Both the position numbers and the translations under genes were made by a program. 64,000 nt of DNA from an uncultured bacterium (GTDB taxonomy: Bacteria > DUMJ01). Below are positions 5,932-21,395 of this stretch, piece after piece. The notes beneath the pieces were generated by a model. The model was not told the DNA's origin. It saw only the letters and a program-made list of their open reading frames with translations, and searched no databases. The stretch's first letter is position 1. Every line of letters begins with the position of its first letter. The stretch is taken from positions 3,377-67,376 of the forward strand of contig CAZZLK010000021.1 of NCBI GenBank assembly GCA_964655195.1, written 5' to 3'.

Positions 5932-6943
5932 TATCCTTGGGATAAATAGTGAGGAATTAAGAGATATCCTTATAGAGAAAGGATATGAGCCATACAGAGT
6001 TCGCCAGATATTGGAATGGATATATGATAAAGCAGTATTGGATTTTTACTCGATGAGTAATCTACCAAAGGAATTACGAAATTTTCTATCCAGTAACTTT
6101 TCCGTAATACCATTTGATCTGGTGACTTATGCCCAAGATGAGGAAACAATCAAGTTTGTCTTTAAAACTGAAGATAATCTCACATTTGAATCGGTAGTAA
6201 TATTCCATCATAACAGGATAACTCTCTGTCTCTCCTCCCAGATAGGGTGTCCCATAGGGTGTAAATTCTGTGCTACTGGTGAATCTTTTCATAGAAATCT
6301 TACATATGAAGAGATAATAGGACAGTATATCTTTGCTAGAAGTTATGTAAAAAAAGATATACGCAGTATAGTATTTATGGGGATGGGAGAACCTTTTCTG
6401 AATGAGGAGAATGTATTCAGAGCGATAGATACATTTATCCAGGAGTTAAATATATCTCCAAGGCACATAACTGTTTCTACATCTGGAATCCCTCGAGGGA
6501 TAATAAATCTGGCTCACAAACATCCTAAGGTCAGACTGGCATTCTCTTTATGGACCCCTGACGAGAGAAAAAGAGAAGGGCTAGTGCCTTTAGCAAATAC
6601 TTATAAGTTAGAAATTATTCTAAGAAGTCTAAAAGAATACGTAAGTATAACTGGTAACAGGATTTCAGTCGAATATACACTGCTCAAAGGAATTAATGAT
6701 GATATAGATGATGCCCATAGACTTGTAGAGCTTTTTAAGGATGTCCCTGTATTTTTCAATGTAATACTTTACAATCCTAAGGACAGAGATACTGAAGCCT
6801 ATAGGACATCTGTAAAAGAAGCCTTAAGATTTGTTGATCTGATAAAAAGTTTAGGGAAAGAGGCTTATCTGAGGATAAGTAAGGGAGAAAGGATCTCAGG
6901 AGCCTGTGGTCAATTGAGGACCGCCTATGAGAGATCTAGGTGA
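5924..6943 (+). CDS. rlmN: 23S rRNA/tRNA adenine-C2 methyltransferase RlmN (radical SAM)
   Basis: CxxxCxxC cluster SQIGCPIGCKFCATG. C-terminal catalytic Cys context GACGQL. Confidence 0.9.
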   Translation: MRSILGINSEELRDILIEKGYEPYRVRQILEWIYDKAVLDFYSMSNLPKELRNFLSSNFSVIPFDLVTYAQDEETIKFVFKTEDNLTFESVVIFHHNRITLCLSSQIGCPIGCKFCATGESFHRNLTYEEIIGQYIFARSYVKKDIRSIVFMGMGEPFLNEENVFRAIDTFIQELNISPRHITVSTSGIPRGIINLAHKHPKVRLAFSLWTPDERKREGLVPLANTYKLEIILRSLKEYVSITGNRISVEYTLLKGINDDIDDAHRLVELFKDVPVFFNVILYNPKDRDTEAYRTSVKEALRFVDLIKSLGKEAYLRISKGERISGACGQLRTAYERSR

Positions 6944-8411
6944 AAGATTTATTATCTTAGAAGAGTCTAAGGGAGATAGGATAAGAGCTTATGACAAACT
7001 ATTAACAAGGTTTGTTAGTCTAAGACAGATAAGAACTAATCTCGGAGTAGGTAAGGTTATAGCTGTATTGGATAGAATTATAAATCTAAATGATGAGTTC
7101 CTAAAAGTTATTGGGTATCAGGCGTTAGATAATGGGATACTATATGCTATAGAAGAGATCCCTCCACAGGAAAATGTAGAGATAAGAAACAATATAAAAG
7201 AGCTATTACAGGTTACAAGGTATATAGGTAGGATGTTTGAGTATCTTAATGCCCAAGGTTTAAGAATAAAGTTGCCAGATATAGACAAGATATATAAAGA
7301 AAGCGACATAAGGTATCTTGTATCTCCCCTAGATTTGATAGACATAAATAATCCGGAAAAAGTGCAGAGTAAGGAGGAGATATTAAATATTCTCGCATCC
7401 TTCTTTATGAACTATGCCCCCCAATCGTTAAGGGATACTTTGTCTTCACTTATTGAGAGAAATATAATATCTAAGCTTAATAATGTAGAGACGCTGGTAA
7501 ATATGTTGAATACATTCATCCTTCAGGAGGAACGAATGAGAACTAAGTCGGACAGTAAAAAGATTGCTGAAGAGGTAAAAAGAGAGAAGAAAAGAATAAG
7601 TCCCTGGGTCTTTATCATAACAGTACTTCTTGTCCTTGCTGGTATTAGCGTCTGGTTATTATATTCTCTGGGAGAAAGATTATTCTTCTCCGAAGGGACA
7701 ATACCAGACGTTATAGTCCCTGATATAATAAATAGGCCCCTTCCTGAGGCATATAGTATTCTTAAGGCTTCAGGGCTTAATATAGAGATCTCTGGATTGG
7801 AATACAGTAGCGCCATTCCTTCCGGGAATATCATCTCGCAGGACCCTAGTGGAGGATTAAAAGTAAAAGCGGGAAGGAATGTAAAAGTAATAATAAGTAA
7901 AGGGATCGAGCTTGTTAATGTTCCCAATATCGTAGGGCAGGAATTAGGTAATGCTAGGAAAATCCTGGAATCAGTAGGTTTGAAGATAGGGGATATAATA
8001 GAAACCCCTACCAGGACAGTCCCAAATGGTATAGTACTCTCACAAAACCCCAAATATGGTAGTATTACTAGTAAAAATTCTCTAGTAGCTGTAGAGATAT
8101 CCAAACATCTCCAGAGTAATATGCCTAATTTAATAGGCAAGACCCAAGAGGAAGCTGAAAGTTTATTAAGATCTCTCGGTCAGTACATACTTGTGATTAA
8201 AGAGAGAGAAAGCGATAATCCCGGGGTTGTCATATCTCAAAATCCCCCGGCTAATACATCCTTACTGCAGGAGATTCCCAGGATAGAGATTACAATAGGA
8301 ATTCCTAAAAAGGCTATCCCTCAACCTCCATCACATCCAAATCTAGAAGAGGTACCAATCGAAGGGCAGACAGAGACCTCACCCAATACTGAGACATTGC
8401 CATCAGAGTAG
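6927..8411 (+). CDS. PASTA-domain membrane protein with degenerate N-terminal Ser/Thr-kinase-like domain (PrkC/PknB-derived pseudokinase)
   Basis: One TM helix (ISPWVFIITVLLVLAGISVWLLY) followed by three PASTA-like repeats (e.g. PDIINRPLPEAYSILKASGLNIEI...NIISQDPSGG..KVKAGRNVKVIISKG). The N-terminal ~150 aa aligns to kinase subdomains but reads RFIILEESKGD in place of the Gly loop, VSLR for VAIK, RIKLPDID for HRD and SPLDLI for DFG. It occupies the prkC slot after rlmN. Confidence 0.7.
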   Translation: MRDLGERFIILEESKGDRIRAYDKLLTRFVSLRQIRTNLGVGKVIAVLDRIINLNDEFLKVIGYQALDNGILYAIEEIPPQENVEIRNNIKELLQVTRYIGRMFEYLNAQGLRIKLPDIDKIYKESDIRYLVSPLDLIDINNPEKVQSKEEILNILASFFMNYAPQSLRDTLSSLIERNIISKLNNVETLVNMLNTFILQEERMRTKSDSKKIAEEVKREKKRISPWVFIITVLLVLAGISVWLLYSLGERLFFSEGTIPDVIVPDIINRPLPEAYSILKASGLNIEISGLEYSSAIPSGNIISQDPSGGLKVKAGRNVKVIISKGIELVNVPNIVGQELGNARKILESVGLKIGDIIETPTRTVPNGIVLSQNPKYGSITSKNSLVAVEISKHLQSNMPNLIGKTQEEAESLLRSLGQYILVIKERESDNPGVVISQNPPANTSLLQEIPRIEITIGIPKKAIPQPPSHPNLEEVPIEGQTETSPNTETLPSE

Positions 8412-10396: not shown

Positions 10397-11500
10397 ATGT
10401 TTGTCTTTGGTACCCGTCCTGAGGTATCAAAATTGGCTCCTGTCATATTTGAGGCTCAGAGGGAACCTTCTCTTGAAACTATAATTGTATCCACCGGGCA
10501 ACATAGAGAGATGCTGGATCAGATGTTAAAGATATTCGGTATCAGTCCAGATATAGATCTGGACGTTATGGAAGAGAGACAGAGCTTAAGCAGTATCACA
10601 GTAAGGATTATAGAAAGATTAGATCCTGTAATTCTTCGTTACAAACCAGATATGGTGATAGTTCAAGGGGATACCTCTACCGCATTTTTGGCAAGTCTGG
10701 TAAGTTTCTATAATAAGATCCCGGTGGCACATGTAGAAGCAGGTTTACGAAGCTTCGATATATATAACCCATTTCCTGAGGAGGCAAATAGAAGATTCAT
10801 CTCTGTAGTTGCCAGTCTCAATCTAGCTCCCACCAAGAAAGCTAAGGAAAATCTTCTAAAAGAGGGTATAAAAGAGGAGAGTATTATAGTTACTGGTAAT
10901 ACAATAGTAGATGCGGTCTACTGGATTTCAAAAGACCTGCCAGAGATCACTACAGATAAAAAGTTAATACTGGTAACTGCACATAGAAGGGAGAACTGGG
11001 GAGAACCAATGAAAGAACTGGCGCTGGCTATAAAAGAACTCGTACACGAGTTTCCAGATATAGTTTTTATAATTCCGCTCCACAAAAATCCGATTGTGAG
11101 GGAGATATTTAATGATATCCTATCATCTGTAGAGAGGGTCAAACTCTTGGAGCCTTTGGACTATCCTTCCTTAATAGGTATAATGAAGAATTCCTATCTT
11201 ATCCTTACAGATTCAGGAGGTATACAGGAAGAGGCTCCAACATTTGGGAAACCTGTTCTGGTCTTGAGAGAAACCACCGAAAGACCTGAAGGAGTAGAAA
11301 AGGGAGTAGCCAAGCTTGTAGGGATGCACAGAGAAGCTATTGTAAATAGTGTTAAAGAGCTCCTTATTAACAAATCTGTATACATAGCTATGAGTAAAGC
11401 AGGAAATCCTTATGGTGATGGAAAGGCTGGGAAGAGGGTAGTGAAGGCAGTAATGTATTTCCTAGGGATAGGTGAAAAGCCTGATGAGTTTGAATCTTAA
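10397..11500 (+). CDS. wecB: UDP-N-acetylglucosamine 2-epimerase (non-hydrolysing)
   Basis: MFVFGTRPEVSKLAPV.. and HVEAGLRSFD motifs. The ORF track starts at GTG 10352, giving a 15-aa extension atypical for the family. ATG 10397 is chosen, but the start is uncertain. Confidence 0.85.
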   Translation: MFVFGTRPEVSKLAPVIFEAQREPSLETIIVSTGQHREMLDQMLKIFGISPDIDLDVMEERQSLSSITVRIIERLDPVILRYKPDMVIVQGDTSTAFLASLVSFYNKIPVAHVEAGLRSFDIYNPFPEEANRRFISVVASLNLAPTKKAKENLLKEGIKEESIIVTGNTIVDAVYWISKDLPEITTDKKLILVTAHRRENWGEPMKELALAIKELVHEFPDIVFIIPLHKNPIVREIFNDILSSVERVKLLEPLDYPSLIGIMKNSYLILTDSGGIQEEAPTFGKPVLVLRETTERPEGVEKGVAKLVGMHREAIVNSVKELLINKSVYIAMSKAGNPYGDGKAGKRVVKAVMYFLGIGEKPDEFES

Positions 11501-11699
11501 GAAACCTTATGGGATATGGAGGTATATAGGTATAGCATTTTCCCTAGGTTTTACAATAGTCGCTTCTATACTTGTAGGCTTATATATAGGGGGATTCTTG
11601 GATAAAAAGCTACTTACTGGTTACTCTTTTAGAGTTCTTTTTATGTTTATTGGAGCTTTTACTGGATTGAGAAGTATATACAGGCAATACAGGAAGTGA
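11472..11699 (+). CDS. Small two-TM membrane protein, AtpZ-like (ATP synthase operon gene 1 family)
   Basis: 75 aa with two predicted TM helices, immediately upstream of atpI. Resembles AtpZ/ATPase_gene1 proteins in size and topology only. Confidence 0.45.
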   Translation: MKSLMSLNLKKPYGIWRYIGIAFSLGFTIVASILVGLYIGGFLDKKLLTGYSFRVLFMFIGAFTGLRSIYRQYRK

Positions 11700-12049
11700 A
11701 TAATCCTTTAATTTATATCTTAAAGATTTACTCATTAATAGCCTTTCCTCCTGGAATCATAATCCTGATTATGGCAAAAAGACATTACCTTCAAGGATAT
11801 CTTATAGGGGTTTCTCTAGGTTTACTAGATATCTTCTTTTTGTCTAGAAGTCTCAAAGGTAATTTAAATTACTCCAAAGCCATTATAGATATGCTTTTGA
11901 GGATGTTAGTCTTTGGGGCGATAGTACTCTTACTATTTGTTTGTGATATAATAAATAGGTTAAATATAGCAGGGTTATTTGTAGGGTTACTACTATACCC
12001 TATAGCCATAATAGTAGGAGGACTTAAGATTATAAGATGGAAGAGATAG
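11696..12049 (+). CDS. atpI: ATP synthase protein I (AtpI)-like membrane protein
   Basis: 117 aa, multi-TM, directly precedes atpB as in Bacillus-type operons. Confidence 0.55.
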   Translation: MNNPLIYILKIYSLIAFPPGIIILIMAKRHYLQGYLIGVSLGLLDIFFLSRSLKGNLNYSKAIIDMLLRMLVFGAIVLLLFVCDIINRLNIAGLFVGLLLYPIAIIVGGLKIIRWKR

Positions 12050-12693
12050 CTCCAAGAATAGTTTTTAGTATATTTGGGATACCGGTGACTGACTCTGTGA
12101 CCACTACTTGGGTGGTTATGGGGTTTATCCTGCTTTTAGGATGGATTCTCTCTAAAAATCTATCCGAACGACCAAGCAAGATTCAGGCTGTGCTTGAGAG
12201 CGTTATAGACTTTTACGAAAATATAGCGGTGCAAATAATGGGAGAAGAAGGCAAACAGTTTGTTCCTCTGGCTGTATCTATTGGTCTTTTTATACTGCTT
12301 TCTAACTGGATAGAGATAATACCTGGATTTAACGCGCCAACAAGAGATTTAAGTACAACTATAGCGTTAGCTATAGTTGCTGTCTCTTCTACGTATGTGG
12401 TTGGGATCAAGAAAAAGGGCTTGAGGTTCTTCAAAAAGTATATAGAGCCTAGTCCGATATTTCTGCCTATAAATATTCTAGAAGAACTAGTCAGACCTAT
12501 CTCTCTTAGCTTCCGTTTGTTTGGCAATATCCTAGGGGAAGAGATAGTTATAGCCATATTAGTGATGATCGTACCTCTAATCTTGCCTATTCCTATGATA
12601 CTTTTAGGTCTATTCACTGGTCTAATTCAGGCATTTATCTTCTCCCTTCTAACCCTGCTGTATGTAGCTGGAGCAGTAGGAGAAGAAGTCTAG
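12037..12693 (+). CDS. atpB: F0F1 ATP synthase subunit a
   Basis: Conserved stator Arg region LSFRLFGNILGEE. 218 aa polytopic membrane protein. Confidence 0.9.
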   Translation: MEEIAPRIVFSIFGIPVTDSVTTTWVVMGFILLLGWILSKNLSERPSKIQAVLESVIDFYENIAVQIMGEEGKQFVPLAVSIGLFILLSNWIEIIPGFNAPTRDLSTTIALAIVAVSSTYVVGIKKKGLRFFKKYIEPSPIFLPINILEELVRPISLSFRLFGNILGEEIVIAILVMIVPLILPIPMILLGLFTGLIQAFIFSLLTLLYVAGAVGEEV

Positions 12694-12715
12694 AGTTTGG
12701 AGGTGAAACATATCT

Positions 12716-12982
12716 ATGTTGACAGGTAAAGTATTAGTAATAATAGCTTCTGTAATATCAGCCGGATTTGGAATGGGAATGGCAGTATTGGGTGGAGCCC
12801 TTGGCGAAGGAAATGCTGTCTCCAAAGCGATGGAGTCTCTAGGGAGACAACCGGAGGCTCAAAGTTCTATTATGACAGTATTACTTCTGGGGCTTGCATT
12901 TATAGAATCACTGGTAATATTTATGCTAGTTGTAGCACTTGTATTGATCTTTGTGAATCCTTTTGTGGGGATGGTTCAATAG
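12716..12982 (+). CDS. atpE: F0F1 ATP synthase subunit c
   Basis: 88 aa hairpin proteolipid with the ion-binding Glu in [10 protein letters not shown]. Confidence 0.9.
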
Positions 12983-13477
12983 ATGATAAGGTTCACTTTT
13001 CCTACATTTATATTCCAGATTATAAACTTCTTGGTCACCCTGTACTTGATATATAGGTTTGTCTATAACCCTATAGCCAGGTATATATCTAAAAGGCAGG
13101 AGAGTATAGAGAGTGAGCTTGAGAGGGCTAAAGCTGAGAGAGAATCAGCTGAGGCCCTGAAATTAGCGTATGAAGAGAAGTTAAAAGAGGCACAAAGACA
13201 GGCGGAAGAGATTATAGAAAGGGCTAAACTTCAAGCAGAGGAAGAAAGAAAACAGATATTAGATAGGGCCCAGAGGGAGGCTCAAGCTCTGTTTAACAAA
13301 GCTCAGAACGAACTTCTCCTAGAGCGAAAACATGCGATAGAAAAATTTAAAGAGGAAATTACAGAAATAGTACTCGACCTGGTATCAAAACTTATTATGG
13401 TAGAATTCAACAGTAAGGATAAGATTAGAGAGAAAATACTGGAAAAGTATATGGAGGGGATAAAGAGTTATAAATGA
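12983..13477 (+). CDS. atpF: F0F1 ATP synthase subunit b
   Basis: N-terminal TM helix followed by a long charged coiled-coil (E/K/A/R-rich). 164 aa. Confidence 0.85.
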
Positions 13478-15518
13478 GTGCCACCTCAATTTCAAGTACC
13501 ATAGACGTCTTAACCGAAGAGTTGGTTAAAACAGCCATAAGAGAAGATAGAGAAGAGGATTATAAGTCTCTTCTTAGAAATCTTATAGATGAACTTACCT
13601 ATAACCCTGAACTGAGTAATCTATGGGAAAAAGGGGATGTTATTGAAAAGAAGAGGGTTATAAGAGAGAGATTTTCAGACGCCTCTCCTAGATTCTTTAG
13701 CTTTGTCTCCAAAATTATAGATTCCAATTTGGAGGATTCTCTCTACAGCATCTATCTCAGATTTATTGAGTTATTAGATCACAACCAGTTTTCAAAGGTA
13801 AGAGTAGAATTACCATTTCCTCTGTCGGAAGATAAGATAGAAAGTTTAGAATCATTCCTCTCCAATCTTCTTAACAGGGATGTTGTATGCTCCATTCATA
13901 TTAACGAGAACATTATAAATGGAATTAAGGTAGATCTAGAAGAAGAAGTGATAGACTTATCTCTAAAGACTCAACTAGATATCCTAAAAGAAGATCTGGA
14001 AAACATAGCGGTAGAAGATTCTTTCTATGAGATATTAGAAAAGATCAAAGAAAAAGTATCTTCTTTCTCTGTAAAGCCCTTAAGACTCTCTCTGGGACGA
14101 GTAGAAAGTATAAGAGACTGTGTAGTAAATGCCTCTGGGTTAAAGAATGCAAGATACGGGGAGTTGGTATTATTTCCTGATAACGTCTACGGAATGGTGA
14201 TGAGTTTAGAAGAAGATTCTACAGGTATTATACTTTTAGGGCCATCGGATAAGATCTCCGCAGGAGATACCATAAGAACAACCGGCAGGGTGTTAGAAGT
14301 CCCTGTAGGAGAAGAGCTTATAGGAAGGGTGATAGATCCCCTCGGCAGAGCATTAGATGGAGGTCCCCCTATAGAAGCTACTAAGACCAGAAGAATAGAG
14401 AATCTTGCTCCAACAGTAGTTGAGAGAGAACCGGTAAATACCCCCCTGCAGACAGGATTAAAGGTGATAGATGCATTATTTCCCATTGGAAGAGGACAGA
14501 GGGAATTAATAATAGGTGATAGACAGACGGGAAAGACCGCTATAGCTATTGATACCATCCTCAATCAGAAGAATGAAGATGTTATCTGTATATATGTAGC
14601 TATAGGACAAAAGGCAACAACGGTTGCTGAGATAGTCAAAATACTGAAAGAGAGAGGAGCGATGGATTATACAATTATCGTTTCTGCATTCGCCAGCGAA
14701 CCAGCATCTCTACTATATATAGCTCCATACGCAGGATGCGCTATAGGTGAAGAGTTTATGTATCAGGGAAGAGATGTATTGATAATATACGATGATCTAT
14801 CTAAGCATGCAAAAGCTTATAGAGAGATCTCCCTCCTTTTAAAGCGGCCCCCGGGCAGAGAGGCTTATCCTGGAGATATCTTTTACTTACATGCAAGACT
14901 TCTGGAAAGATCGGCAAAACTTAACAGCTATCTTGGTGGGGGATCTTTAACCGCGTTACCTATAGTAGAGACTCAGCTAGGAGATATCTCTGCCTATATA
15001 CCAACAAATCTAATTTCTATTACTGATGGACAGATATATCTGGATGCCTCGCTCTTTCATGAAGGAATTAGACCAGCAGTGGACATAGGACTCTCTGTAT
15101 CTAGAGTAGGTGGCAATGCCCAGATTAAAGCTATGAGGCAGGTAGCCGGAAGATTGAGGCTAGATCTTGCACAGTATCGAGAGGTAGAGACATTTGCCCA
15201 GATATCTACAGATATAGATCCCGCTACTAGGGGGTTATTAGAAAGAGGAGCTAGGATAAGAGAGATACTGAAACAGCCACAGTACAGTCCTATGGAAGTG
15301 ATAGATCAGGTTATAGTTCTATTTACCGTAACCAGAGGATATATAGATGAGATAGCTATAGAAGAAGTTTCTCATTTTCAGAATGGGCTATTAGATTATA
15401 TAAACAGAAACTACAAAGTTTTAAAAGATAAAATAAAGTCAGAAGGTTTAACCGAAGAAAATATAACAGAACTGACTAGGGCTATATTTGAATTTAAAAG
15501 GACATTTAGTAGCGAGTA

Positions 15519-15519
<1 letters not shown>
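13474..15519 (+). CDS. atpA: F0F1 ATP synthase delta (OSCP)-alpha in-frame fusion protein
   Basis: 681 aa. Residues ~1-180 align to delta/OSCP: [47 protein letters not shown] resembles E. coli delta [45 protein letters not shown]. From ~181 it is canonical alpha: [27 protein letters not shown] and Walker [19 protein letters not shown]. No stop or start codon lies between the parts; the junction ..[19 protein letters not shown].. is near nt 14011. Confidence 0.85.
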
Positions 15520-18193
<2,674 letters not shown>

Positions 18194-18197
<4 letters not shown>

Positions 18198-19441
18198 AGA
18201 TAAAGATAGAAGGTGGAGTAAGGCTGAATGGGGAAGTGAGTATAATCGGGGCTAAAAATTCTGCCCTCCCAATAATGGCTGCCACGTTACTCACTGATGG
18301 AACCACTGTCATTCACAATATACCTGATTTAAAAGATGTTCATACTATGATGAGTATGCTGGAAAATTTTGGAGCTAAGTTAAAATTCAAGAAGAATATC
18401 CTCGAGGTTACTATAAATGAAATACTTCCCGTAGACCCACCGGAAGACCAGGTAAAGCAGATGAGGGCTTCTTTTCTCGTTGCAGGACCCCTTCTGGCTA
18501 GACTTGGCAAGATAAGGATACCTCTTCCAGGTGGCTGTCAAATAGGTTCCAGGCCTGTAGACCTCCATCTAAAAGGATTTCAAGCTTTAGGGGCTAAAGT
18601 AACTAGTGAACACGGTTACGTTGACCTGGAGACTAAAGGCTTAAAGGGAGCTTCTATATACCTTGACATTCCTACGGTTACAGGTACTGAAAATATTATG
18701 ATGGCAGCAGTCCTGGCAAGAGGTAAGACGGAGATCATCAATGCTGCCAAAGAACCTGAGGTTGTTGATCTTGCCGAAGCATTAAATAAGATGGGAGCAA
18801 AGATAAAGGGCGCAGGAACAGACAGGATAGAGATCGAAGGGGTAGACTCTTTATCCCCTGTAGAACATACCATAATACCTGACAGGATTGAGGCAGGGAC
18901 ATTTCTTGTGGCTGGAGCAATTACAGGTGGAGAAGTCACTATTAAAGGTGCAAGAAAAGACCATCTTGGAGCAGTACTGGGCAAACTCGAAGAGATGGGT
19001 CATAAGATAGAAGCAGAAGAGGAAAGAATAAGGATTATAGCAAAGAACGTAGGTAAAGCCTGCGATATTACCACTGCTCCTTATCCTGGATTTCCTACAG
19101 ATATGCAGGCTCTCTTTGCCAGTCTATTAGGTGTATCTAAGGGAACTAGTATTATAACAGAAACTATCTTTGATAGGAGATTTGGTTTTGTAGATGAACT
19201 CATCAGGATGGGAGCAAATATGAGGGTCCAAGGGAATACACTTATAATAGTAGGGATAAAGAGGTATTCTGGAGCCAGTGTTACCGCTGGAGATTTAAGA
19301 GCAGGCGCAGCTCTAATAATGGCAGGACTAAATGCTGAGGGAACTACGGAGATATCAGGAGTAGAACATATAGAGAGAGGATACGAAGCTATAGATAAAA
19401 AGCTCAAGATATTAGGGGCTAAGATTTCCATCGAACCTTAA
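18194..19441 (+). CDS. murA: UDP-N-acetylglucosamine 1-carboxyvinyltransferase
   Basis: N-terminal GAKNSALPIMAATLL and active-site Cys region PGGCQIGSRPVDLH. Follows atpC as in Bacillus. Confidence 0.93.
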
Positions 19442-19445
19442 ATAT

Positions 19446-21395
19446 GTGAGATTCATAGTCTTTAATATGATTAAAGAAAGGAGGGCTAAATTGACTAGGA
19501 AGATAATACTGATATTAGCTTTGCTTATCTTCTTCTGTATTATCTTTAATAGCTATGTCTTATCAGGCGAAAAGATTAAGATATCTGGTATTGAAATCCA
19601 GGGGAACCGTAATATCCCTAAAGAAGAGATAATAAAGATACTCGACCTTCCAGAAGAGATAGACGAAGACATAGTTAGATCAGGACTACAGAGGCTCTTA
19701 AATACAGGATACTTTTCCAATATTGACGCTAGTATGAAAGTGGATGGAAGTAAGTATATCTTAGTTATTAGCGTAAGTGAAGCTCCAGTCTTTAAAGAGA
19801 TTAAAGTGGTGGGTAATAAAGATATAGATACTGCAGAGATAGTAAACCTTATCTCTTTAAAGTCAGGCACCACTATAAATCTTATCACCTTAAACCAGGA
19901 TTTAGGTAAGATTGCAGAACTCTACAAGAGTAGAGGATACATAGGAGCAAACTTCCAGGTCAATATAACTGAAGATGGAATAATAGTCATAAATATAAAC
20001 GAGGGCCCAACTGTTTCAGGTTTTATATTTAAAGGAAACACTGTAATAAAGTCGGAAGATCTGGATAAAGAGCTAGAAAAATACAGAGGAAAGACCTTGA
20101 ATACAAATCTATTAAAGGATATGGCACTAAATATTCAGGAGTTCTATAATAAGAAAGGATATCCTGCCTGTGTTATTCTCAATGCGTACAGCGATACAAA
20201 TGGAGTAGTGACATTTGAAATAGGTGAAGGTAAGATTGCAAAGATAGTTATCGATGGAAATAAAAAGACAAAAGACTACGTAATTCTCAGGGAGATGGAA
20301 ACCAAAGCTGGAGACGTTCTTAATACTACTAAAATTCAAAAAGACCTTCAGAAGATATTTAACCTTGGTTATTTTTCAGATGTAAATGCAGATATCAAGT
20401 CTGCCGAAACCCCTGGTGAAATTATCCTAACAGTCAGGGTAGTGGAGCAACTCACTGGACAGGCAAATGGTGGTATAGCCTATAGCACCGCCGAGGGTTT
20501 TTCTATAATATTAGGAATTAAAGACTCAAATCTATTGGGAACAGGAAGAGATTTAGGTCTGTATCTAAATATAGGAGTTACCGCTCGTGATATAACACTA
20601 AATTATACCGAGCCGTATGCTTTCGGAACCACAGGAACCTTAAGTACTTATCTAGTATGGAGGAAGGCAGATAATACAGATATAATAGAGAACACATCAA
20701 TTAACTATTCGGAGGATAGAAAGACCCTTGAATTGACGTTGACTAAACCGATAGATATAAACCTAAAGGGTACGATAGGATTCTCTTATAATGATATAAC
20801 TTATCAGGCTAAAGAGGATGTAACACTACCAGAGATGATAAAGTCTGGTATCTCTAGCGCCCTAGTCCTGGGAGTTGCCAAAGATACAAGAGATGTAATC
20901 TTAAACCCTATGAAGGGGGACTACTACTCACTAAATATAAAGCAGGGCGGAGGAATATTCGGTGGAGACTTCAATTTTACAAGACTCAATATCGACCTAA
21001 GATGGTATTTCCCAACATCAGACAAAGATACACTTGCTTTAAACTGCACCTTGGGATTAGGTTTTGGTGAGCTACCATATATAGAGAAGTTCAGTGTTGG
21101 AGGGGTAAATTCTGTAAGGGGACTTCCAGAAAACTGGAAAAAGTCAGACTATTTAGAACTTATAAGTCTTGAATATAGAAACAAGATACAGGATAATGTA
21201 TTTGGTGTGATATTTTTAGACTTAGGAAATGGATGGAAGAGTGGAGAAACGATAAATCTTACAGATCTATATACTGGAATAGGCCTTGGGTTGAGAATAA
21301 TGGTCCCTCCTATGGGGTTATTAAGACTAGATTATGGCTGGGGTAGTTATGACTGGCAGGGAAGATTCTATTTTAGTGTGGGACAAAAATTCTAA
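19446..21395 (+). CDS. bamA: Outer membrane protein assembly factor BamA/Omp85 (POTRA repeats plus C-terminal beta-barrel)
   Basis: Signal/TM segment, POTRA-like repeats (ISGIEIQGNRNIPKEEI...) and a C-terminal barrel ending ..GRFYFSVGQKF. Confidence 0.8.
   Translation: MRFIVFNMIKERRAKLTRKIILILALLIFFCIIFNSYVLSGEKIKISGIEIQGNRNIPKEEIIKILDLPEEIDEDIVRSGLQRLLNTGYFSNIDASMKVDGSKYILVISVSEAPVFKEIKVVGNKDIDTAEIVNLISLKSGTTINLITLNQDLGKIAELYKSRGYIGANFQVNITEDGIIVININEGPTVSGFIFKGNTVIKSEDLDKELEKYRGKTLNTNLLKDMALNIQEFYNKKGYPACVILNAYSDTNGVVTFEIGEGKIAKIVIDGNKKTKDYVILREMETKAGDVLNTTKIQKDLQKIFNLGYFSDVNADIKSAETPGEIILTVRVVEQLTGQANGGIAYSTAEGFSIILGIKDSNLLGTGRDLGLYLNIGVTARDITLNYTEPYAFGTTGTLSTYLVWRKADNTDIIENTSINYSEDRKTLELTLTKPIDINLKGTIGFSYNDITYQAKEDVTLPEMIKSGISSALVLGVAKDTRDVILNPMKGDYYSLNIKQGGGIFGGDFNFTRLNIDLRWYFPTSDKDTLALNCTLGLGFGELPYIEKFSVGGVNSVRGLPENWKKSDYLELISLEYRNKIQDNVFGVIFLDLGNGWKSGETINLTDLYTGIGLGLRIMVPPMGLLRLDYGWGSYDWQGRFYFSVGQKF

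Follow-up and report, generated by a model that had tools for sequence, protein, structure and literature searches.

A complete ATP synthase delta subunit fused in frame to alpha in an uncultured bacterium and its possible bearing on peripheral-stalk number

The delta-alpha fusion gene

We analysed a stretch of 64,000 nucleotides (nt) from an uncultured bacterium (assembly GCA_964655195.1, contig CAZZLK010000021.1, positions 3,377 to 67,376; hereafter the window), which carries an F-type ATP synthase operon with the gene order atpZ-like, atpI-like, a, c, b, delta-alpha fusion, gamma, beta and epsilon. The operon is otherwise ordinary, and its sixth gene, atpHA, is a single open reading frame (ORF) that encodes the delta subunit (OSCP) and the alpha subunit as one protein. 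A first-pass annotation, made from the sequence alone, had proposed such an in-frame fusion at 13474-15519 and had counted it as the fifth gene of the operon; the count becomes six when the two small upstream genes are included, and the fusion itself was borne out by the ORF together with full profile matches to both OSCP and alpha. No internal stop codon occurs within 13474..15519 on the plus strand, as seen both in the ORF list and on direct reading of the sequence (features are collected in Table 1).

Both halves of the protein are recognisable members of their families. The Pfam OSCP profile (PF00213) matched residues 17-175 over profile positions 9-172 of 172 with 65.1 bits (cut-off 22.3), and residues 1-180 searched alone scored 68.7 bits; the stricter NCBIfam delta equivalog, TIGR01145, gave 44.1, under its cut-off of 57.5. 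On the alpha side, the Pfam domains ATP-synt_ab_N, ATP-synt_ab and ATP-synt_ab_C span residues 217-673, TIGR00962 (atpA) matched residues 185-679 over model positions 5-502 of 503 with 735.7 bits (NCBIfam cut-off 484.45), and a Walker A motif, GDRQTGKT, lies at residues 348-355. We assign the first part to OSCP on its whole-length profile match, its two-domain fold and its position between atpF and alpha, and the second part to F1 alpha on its equivalog-level score over the full model together with the Walker A motif. PF00430 (ATP-synt_B) had no match within the 681-amino-acid (aa) ORF, and b is a separate gene of 164 aa. Assignment of the system to the N-ATPases was considered and rejected, as TIGR03324 scored 651.7 (cut-off 750.5), the gene order is a-c-b-delta/alpha-gamma-beta-epsilon, and a delta is present.

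Table 1. Features of the fusion gene and of the atp operon in the window (AF2, AlphaFold2; pN and pS, proportions of nonsynonymous and synonymous differences)
Feature	Position	Strand	Basis or remark
atpHA (delta-alpha fusion)	13474..15519	+	single ORF, ATG start, 681 aa, 76.3 kDa
delta N-terminal domain, residues 1-105	13474..13788	+	Pfam OSCP from profile position 9; AF2; Foldseek; pN << pS
delta C-terminal domain (b-dimer-binding), residues 106-176	13789..14001	+	OSCP to profile position 172; AF2; aligns to 9jc1_I
junction coil, residues 177-183 (LENIAVE-D)	14002..14022	+	AF2 DSSP; 7 residues
alpha N-terminal helix, residues 184-196	14023..14061	+	AF2; aligns to EEISALIKQQIENY of PS3 alpha in 9jc1_I
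alpha body: beta-barrel crown, nucleotide-binding domain, C-terminal helical domain	14062..15516	+	PF02874, PF00006, PF00306; TIGR00962
AtpZ / 'ATPase_gene1'-type small membrane protein	11472..11699	+	Pfam PF09527, 49 bits; first gene of cluster
AtpI-like small hydrophobic protein, 117 aa	11696..12049	+	without Pfam match; name inferred from position only
atpB, Fo subunit a, 218 aa	12037..12693	+	Pfam PF00119, 171 bits
atpE, Fo subunit c, 88 aa	12716..12982	+	Pfam PF00137; alignments to solved c subunits
atpF, sole peripheral-stalk subunit b, 164 aa	12983..13477	+	Pfam PF00430, 91.5 bits
atpG, gamma	15519..16400	+	Pfam PF00231, 206 bits
atpD, beta	16393..17787	+	Pfam PF00006 and PF02874
atpC, epsilon	17784..18197	+	Pfam PF02823, 93.8 bits

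Conservation and origin of the fusion

A search with the whole protein across NCBI, ENA, JGI and Logan assemblies returned approximately 24 protein clusters of 680-684 aa, ranging from 100% to 69% identity, all of which combine OSCP with alpha. The continuous frame was confirmed at the DNA level in nine loci, and an identical synteny (fumarase, upp, wecB, the atp genes, murA, bamA, ompH) was found in the related loci L003-L010. In a 19-sequence alignment of the clade the junction was free of gaps and invariant in length, with identity minima of 30% for the delta N-domain, 47-53% for the delta C-domain and 81-83% for alpha. Between clade members pS was 0.6-0.8, which is near saturation, and pN was 0.15-0.44 in both delta domains; because pN lies far below near-saturated pS, the delta part is selected coding sequence that has long been in frame with alpha. 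Orthologues in related genomes were thus consistently fused and not encoded as separate genes, and the same junction, without an indel, recurred throughout a clade at saturated divergence in all four data sources, which disposes of an assembly error or missed stop near nt 14010, an option that the first-pass annotation had left standing. The fusion is real and ancient.

Within the junction region D183-S184-F185 is invariant in the 19 sequences while the neighbouring residues vary, and the S-x-x-E/D pattern that follows the Asp may be read as an N-capping box of the alpha N-helix.

The nearest unfused relatives of the fusion protein are in the Halanaerobiales, whose alpha is 62-63% identical to it. 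In Iocasia and Halothermothrix (L013:2435-3001 and L014:2436-3011) atpH and atpA lie 6 nt apart or overlap by 11 nt, and delta ends in a C-terminal tail of 9-14 residues that is missing from the fused protein; counting the first alpha residues as well, about 11-16 residues are missing in the fusion relative to the unfused Halanaerobiales. Because atpH and atpA abut or overlap in these relatives, a single stop-loss or indel could create the fusion, which probably arose when the delta stop of such a pair was lost, with the delta tail and first alpha residues trimmed afterwards. The same two genera provided a free-delta control pair (delta C-domain 41% and N-domain 41% identical), and at equal alpha divergence the corresponding clade values were 47-53% for the C-domain and 30-32% for the N-domain. 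With this one control pair (n = 1), the comparison is a weak hint that the fused delta may be more conserved in its C-domain and less conserved in its N-domain than a free delta.

Among the related loci, L005 is a contig from DUMJ01, the genome assembly after which the GTDB phylum DUMJ01 ("Candidatus Macifiota") is named; this phylum comprises 3 genomes with a GC content of 37.7-39.8% from organic-waste digesters and oil fields. The GC content of the window is 38.5%. The fusion seems to be characteristic of this uncultured diderm lineage, within which we would place the window.

Junction and predicted product

The first-pass annotation had seen no stop codon, start codon or Shine-Dalgarno (SD) sequence at the junction, and a listing of start codons together with the sequence itself agreed. 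No in-frame ATG, GTG or TTG occurs between residues 160 and 230 of the window fusion, none is conserved between residues ~160 and ~241 across the nine loci, and in L007-L010 there is none at all between ~142 and ~241. No SD-like sequence precedes the sporadic in-frame starts within the upstream 20 nt inspected in the nine loci, and an ATG at 14027-14029 is out of frame. Synonymous codon identity at the junction, measured in a sliding window over seven sequences, was 0.52-0.59 compared with a gene mean of 0.50 ± 0.07, with no peak; a promoter and terminator scan of 11000-18600 gave counts at shuffle level and none at the junction, and an Rfam scan of the whole window returned no match. With no conserved in-frame start, synonymous constraint or promoter-like site at the junction, internal initiation, one of the possibilities raised at first pass, found no support.

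A tblastn search of the window detected no second alpha or delta, beta being the sole distant match, and there was no close unfused alpha among thousands of matches to the whole fusion protein. Contig-truncated partials aside, shorter alpha-like products of >69% identity were solely annotation truncations of a fused gene. The predicted product of atpHA is a single polypeptide, and on these sequence features the gene is very probably a real fusion translated as one protein.

Two kinds of truncated record were seen at this junction. The NCBI annotation of L003:1175-2995 starts alpha at a non-conserved internal GTG (L003:1715) and leaves the 540-nt delta part uncalled, and cluster P0273 contains a 502-aa alpha entry among 681-aa proteins; the window codon that matches the L003:1715 GTG is GTA. 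Because annotation starts alpha at internal codons in some metagenome-assembled genomes (MAGs), database counts of delta-alpha fusions are underestimates. In addition, contigs L001 (2978-3532) and L002 (707-1261), from ENA/JGI/NCBI assemblies, break off at one and the same codon shortly after the junction and encode a product of 185 aa ending in '…ARDSI'. These shared ends possibly reflect a break in the assembly graph where divergent delta DNA meets the conserved alpha DNA of co-occurring strains.

Predicted structure and match to an engineered fusion

Mean predicted local distance difference test scores (pLDDT) of the AF2 models were 83 (full protein) and 84 (residues 1-262). The delta N-domain was modelled as helices at residues 8-23, 27-43, 45-53, 56-66, 72-83 and 87-102 (pLDDT ~85-90), and the C-domain, residues 107-176, as a beta-alpha-beta-beta-beta-alpha fold, the two-domain delta as a whole reaching a pLDDT of ~80-90. 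A coil at residues 177-183, where the pLDDT of the N-terminal half is at its minimum (~66-77), leads into a helix at 184-196, and the alpha barrel begins at residue 203. Foldseek aligned 168-177 columns to solved delta/OSCP chains of ~175 residues, with a differing inter-domain angle and a root-mean-square deviation of ~13 Å, and matches to solved alpha chains had a TM-score normalised to the target (TMt) of 0.9.

The best fold matches in the PDB were chains I, K and J of 9JC1 (9jc1_I, K, J; TMt 0.88 over 574 columns). This is the engineered Bacillus PS3 enzyme of Ueno et al. (Nat Commun 2025, PMC12229609), in which the delta N-domain was deleted and the delta C-domain was fused to the alpha N-terminus; it assembles as many as three peripheral stalks, every one with an a-subunit of its own, and has an H+/ATP ratio of 5.8 as opposed to 3.0 in the wild type, with the equilibrium proton-motive force halved (PMC12229609). 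In a phmmer alignment window residues 115-678 matched 9jc1_I residues 12-576 in one stretch, and the natural junction differed from the engineered IRRQLIGGSGGSIRAEEISALIKQQI of 9JC1, which contains a GSGG linker, by one single-residue gap. The 262-residue N-terminal model superposed on 9JC1 over the delta C-domain, junction and barrel at 3.6-4.7 Å, and the top 50 fold matches included no chain from Chloroflexus. As modelled, the natural fusion has the covalent geometry by which the engineered enzyme recruits its extra stalks.

Delta-alpha fusions in other lineages

To gauge breadth, a profile of the junction region was searched against 1.84 billion representatives, and a continuous match from the delta C-domain into the alpha barrel was found in 56 of the 150 best matches. 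By Pfam content the full-length examples split into two classes. Class A joins a whole OSCP to alpha and comprises the DUMJ01 clade, P0116 and P0118 (Anaerovoracaceae MAGs, adjoining a V-type operon), P0158 (Erysipelotrichaceae MAGs), P0172 and P0264, so that the full-length type is encoded in at least four lineages beyond the window clade. Because the linkers of class A differ in length and sequence, with no shared motif, independent origins are suggested. Two word-index searches gave few matches, namely 2 for the first 260 residues of the fusion and 1 for a profile of nine full-length fusions.

Class B joins a complete membrane-anchored b (PF00430, with an N-terminal transmembrane helix and coiled coil), the delta C-domain only and a complete alpha. 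Examples are L011:8001-10274 as well as P0031, P0124, P0148 and P0119, and some of these clusters are present on >100 contigs. The operon reads a-c-b(145 aa)-[b-deltaC-alpha]-gamma-beta-epsilon(86 aa) and resembles the mycobacterial arrangement of b plus b-delta, further fused to alpha. Because b, the delta C-domain and alpha share one ORF, every class B alpha would be membrane-anchored. Class B may or may not equal the Acidaminococcus fermentans type of Ueno et al. On the Anaerovoracaceae-like contig L012 (1-5497), which carries a full-length delta-alpha fusion, a V/A-type ATPase operon, complete with E, C, F, A, B and D, lies immediately upstream of the F-type operon, and because the two adjoin, this organism has two adjacent rotary ATPases.

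The atp operon and its neighbours

The fusion gene is tightly packed into the operon: the atpF stop overlaps its start in the sequence ATGA, and its own stop overlaps the gamma start in TAATG. The AtpZ-type gene keeps its position in all related loci, and a gene of 118 aa occupies the AtpI-like position in L004, L005, L007 and L009.

The c subunit (12716-12982) has a Glu in the helix-1 sequence 'GEGN' where aligned solved c subunits have Gln ('GQG'), and its helix-2 carboxylate stands in 'ES', giving a two-carboxylate pattern that we take to resemble the Na+ c-ring of Fusobacterium nucleatum. The coupling-ion specificity of this subunit bears on any argument from the ion/ATP ratio.

Upstream of the atp cluster lies a PASTA-domain protein (6927-8411), and directly downstream of murA there is a BamA/Omp85 homologue with POTRA domains (19446-21395), followed by OmpH. 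The murA-BamA-OmpH/PASTA arrangement is kept in all related loci and indicates a diderm cell envelope.

Proposed mechanism and alternatives

The mechanism that we propose would start from the layout of the chain, in which a full-length delta, a rigid 7-residue turn, the alpha N-terminal helix and a complete alpha would make up one 76-kDa polypeptide. Because the operon has atpHA as its sole alpha gene and a close unfused paralogue was not encountered, the fusion should fill all three alpha positions, and from the gene content we consider it likely that all three would carry delta, giving three attached deltas per head and not one free. The question of stoichiometry raised at first pass is hence a real one, delta being expected three times per enzyme instead of once. 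Each delta C-domain would most likely dock on the crown of its own alpha and, together with its own alpha N-helix, would let a b2 dimer dock there, so that all three alpha positions would have such a site. The enzyme could then acquire additional peripheral stalks, each bringing its own a-subunit; by analogy with the engineered enzyme, we regard more than one stalk and a-subunit as a fair possibility that falls somewhat short of an even chance. Heads with more than one delta do occur in nature, in Chloroflexus aurantiacus (PMC12002316). Extra a-subunits would multiply the ions passed per turn, so that ATP could be made at a lower membrane potential, and when the enzyme pumps they would equally lower the back-pressure; either effect would suit a low-energy anaerobe of digesters or oil fields. 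As for the three delta N-domains, one might be axial with the others hinged away, or all might be packed above the crown. Taken as a whole, this explanation, an ancient atpH-atpA fusion that places delta on every alpha and has the potential for several stalks, is the one we favour, and we consider its chances evenly balanced.

A number of points weigh against extra stalks. According to Ueno et al. the delta N-domain sits on the pseudo-threefold axis and thereby limits stalks to one (PMC12229609), and the six-helix N-domain retained here is the very element to which both they and Zhang et al. attribute this limit in their arguments. Three full N-domains cannot share the single axial site, and they may block extra stalks or force two deltas to dangle. 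The F1Fo of Chloroflexus aurantiacus (Zhang et al. 2025, PMC12002316) is a delta2 b4 a2 complex in which there are two stalks as well as two a-subunits. Its N-domain, through which the deltas dimerise, is shortened to four helices, and only in this form are two deltas accommodated (PMC12002316). Purifying selection on the N-domain of the fusion argues for a kept job, possibly the canonical single-stalk one. Moreover, the fusion protein is known here from its gene sequence alone, the AF2 models are of monomers and silent on the packing of three copies, and only 64 kb of the genome is in view, so that a second, divergent atpA elsewhere is possible.

Several of these points would be accommodated by a single-stalk enzyme in which one delta is canonical and the other two are displaced, idle or trimmed by housekeeping proteases. 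The benefit would then lie in assembly, with delta always present and F1 never without its clamp, and the ion/ATP ratio would be unchanged. Retention and selection of the full six-helix N-domain, the published design principle by which that domain limits stalks to one, and an operon with one a gene and one b gene, both unremarkable, all fit this alternative. It does not explain why the short, invariant-length junction should match the multi-stalk geometry of 9JC1, since an idle tether needs none, nor does it lead one to expect a delta C-domain that is 47-53% identical where the free-delta control at equal alpha divergence is 41% (n = 1 control); furthermore, two useless 21-kDa domains seem costly on a highly expressed enzyme, throughout a phylum-level clade and at least four other lineages. 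We judge it unlikely, although it deserves to be taken seriously. Post-translational cleavage near the junction, for example at D-S-F, could instead yield free delta and alpha, with excess delta degraded and a canonical enzyme as the outcome. The invariance of D183-S184-F185 amid variable neighbours in 19 sequences and the low pLDDT of the junction coil (~66-77, the lowest of the N-terminal half) speak for it, but an N-capping box would explain that invariance without cleavage, none of the loci has a protease gene associated with the operon, the other full-length fusion lineages have unlike linkers without a shared motif, and the engineered fusion is stable and functional uncleaved (PMC12229609). 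Making three deltas in order to discard two would also be wasteful, and overall we find cleavage improbable.

A mixed alpha pool, in which internal initiation or a second, unfused atpA supplies free alpha and the head contains one delta-alpha and two plain alphas, draws on the internal codons from which the NCBI pipeline called alpha in some MAGs (L003:1715 GTG; the 502-aa entry in P0273) and on the 64 kb to which the visible genome is confined. The L003 GTG is not conserved (GTA in the window, and no in-frame start at ~142-241 in L007-L010), an SD sequence and synonymous constraint are both missing at the junction, and neither a second alpha or delta in the window nor a close unfused alpha among thousands of matches came to light; we therefore hold a mixed pool to be very improbable. 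Lastly, an artefact in which a missed stop or frameshift near nt 14010 merges two ordinary genes found nothing in its favour and has a negligible likelihood, given the same frame in NCBI, ENA, JGI and Logan assemblies from 100% to 69% identity, with the DNA checked in nine loci, and given that the delta tail and first alpha residues of unfused relatives are missing, so that simple read-through of a stop would not produce this protein.

Significance

The ion/ATP ratio sets the minimum membrane potential for ATP synthesis, and for a long time c-ring size was regarded as its sole determinant. Two papers of 2025 showed that the number of peripheral stalks and a-subunits also sets it (PMC12229609, PMC12002316). 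Against this background, a complete delta fused repeatedly to alpha in nature, in a candidate phylum and at least four other anaerobic lineages, represents a natural test of the stalk rule, since the window fusion keeps a complete delta N-domain, unlike the published delta(ΔN)-alpha cases.

That a natural enzyme builds two or three stalks and a-subunits despite its retained delta N-domains, for instance with these packed as a cap over the crown, is a tentative proposal that we hold to be rather doubtful as it stands. If it were true, the ions used per ATP would amount to two to three times (c-ring size / 3), more than in any natural enzyme known so far, and DUMJ01 and several Firmicutes lineages could make ATP at a very low membrane potential. 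The rule that a full-length delta N-domain restricts F-type enzymes to one stalk would be overturned, and low-energy anaerobes would be able to live on small gradients in a way not recognised before. A single-stalk outcome would, for its part, show an asymmetric stator assembling from three identical delta-bearing subunits. On a practical level, annotation pipelines sometimes hide such fusions by truncating alpha to an internal codon.

Comparison with known systems

The first-pass annotation had named no described delta-alpha fusion and treated the arrangement as undescribed, and this claim has to be withdrawn, as both the engineered 9JC1 and natural fusions without the N-domain have been published (PMC12229609). 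Literature searches under 'delta-alpha fusion' and similar terms returned only the actinobacterial b/delta fusion, and the relevant papers surfaced via 9JC1. Like the window protein, 9JC1 has the delta C-terminus in frame with the alpha N-terminus, a very short linker and no separate delta gene in the operon. It differs in being an engineered protein without delta residues 2-104, whereas the window protein keeps the whole six-helix N-domain, and in that its multi-stalk state and H+/ATP ratio of 5.8 were measured, while the window enzyme is known from its genes.

Natural delta(ΔN)-alpha fusions were pointed out by Ueno et al. in Acidaminococcus fermentans D2RLW6, G4Q3K6 and A0A1I2C5T3 (PMC12229609, Discussion, Supplementary Fig. 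9). These share with the window protein a natural in-frame delta-alpha fusion in strict anaerobes, for which multiple stalks were proposed only (PMC12229609); they are described as lacking the delta N-domain that the window protein has, and are set apart from it here by that description. The Chloroflexus enzyme is likewise a natural F-type head with more than one delta, its delta C-domains sitting on alpha barrels and each holding a b-dimer and an a-subunit, but its delta is a separate protein with a four-helix N-domain (~85 residues) that forms an axial dimer, whereas in the window delta is covalently fused, has a six-helix N-domain (~102 residues) and is expected in three copies.

In the mycobacterial and actinobacterial b-delta proteins (PDB 7JG5, 7NJK; PMC5709465) neighbouring atp stalk genes are also fused and the delta domain docks on F1. 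There, however, the partner is b at the N-terminus of delta and the stoichiometry stays at 1, while the partner in the window is alpha at the C-terminus of delta. With canonical enzymes (E. coli 6OQR, PS3 6N2Y, A. baumannii 7P2Y) the window system shares ordinary halves, the order b-delta-alpha-gamma and a retained alpha N-helix; it differs in having one polypeptide, whereby delta:alpha would be 3:3 and not 1:3. The full-length-delta fusion is a new form of a kind recognised only in 2025.

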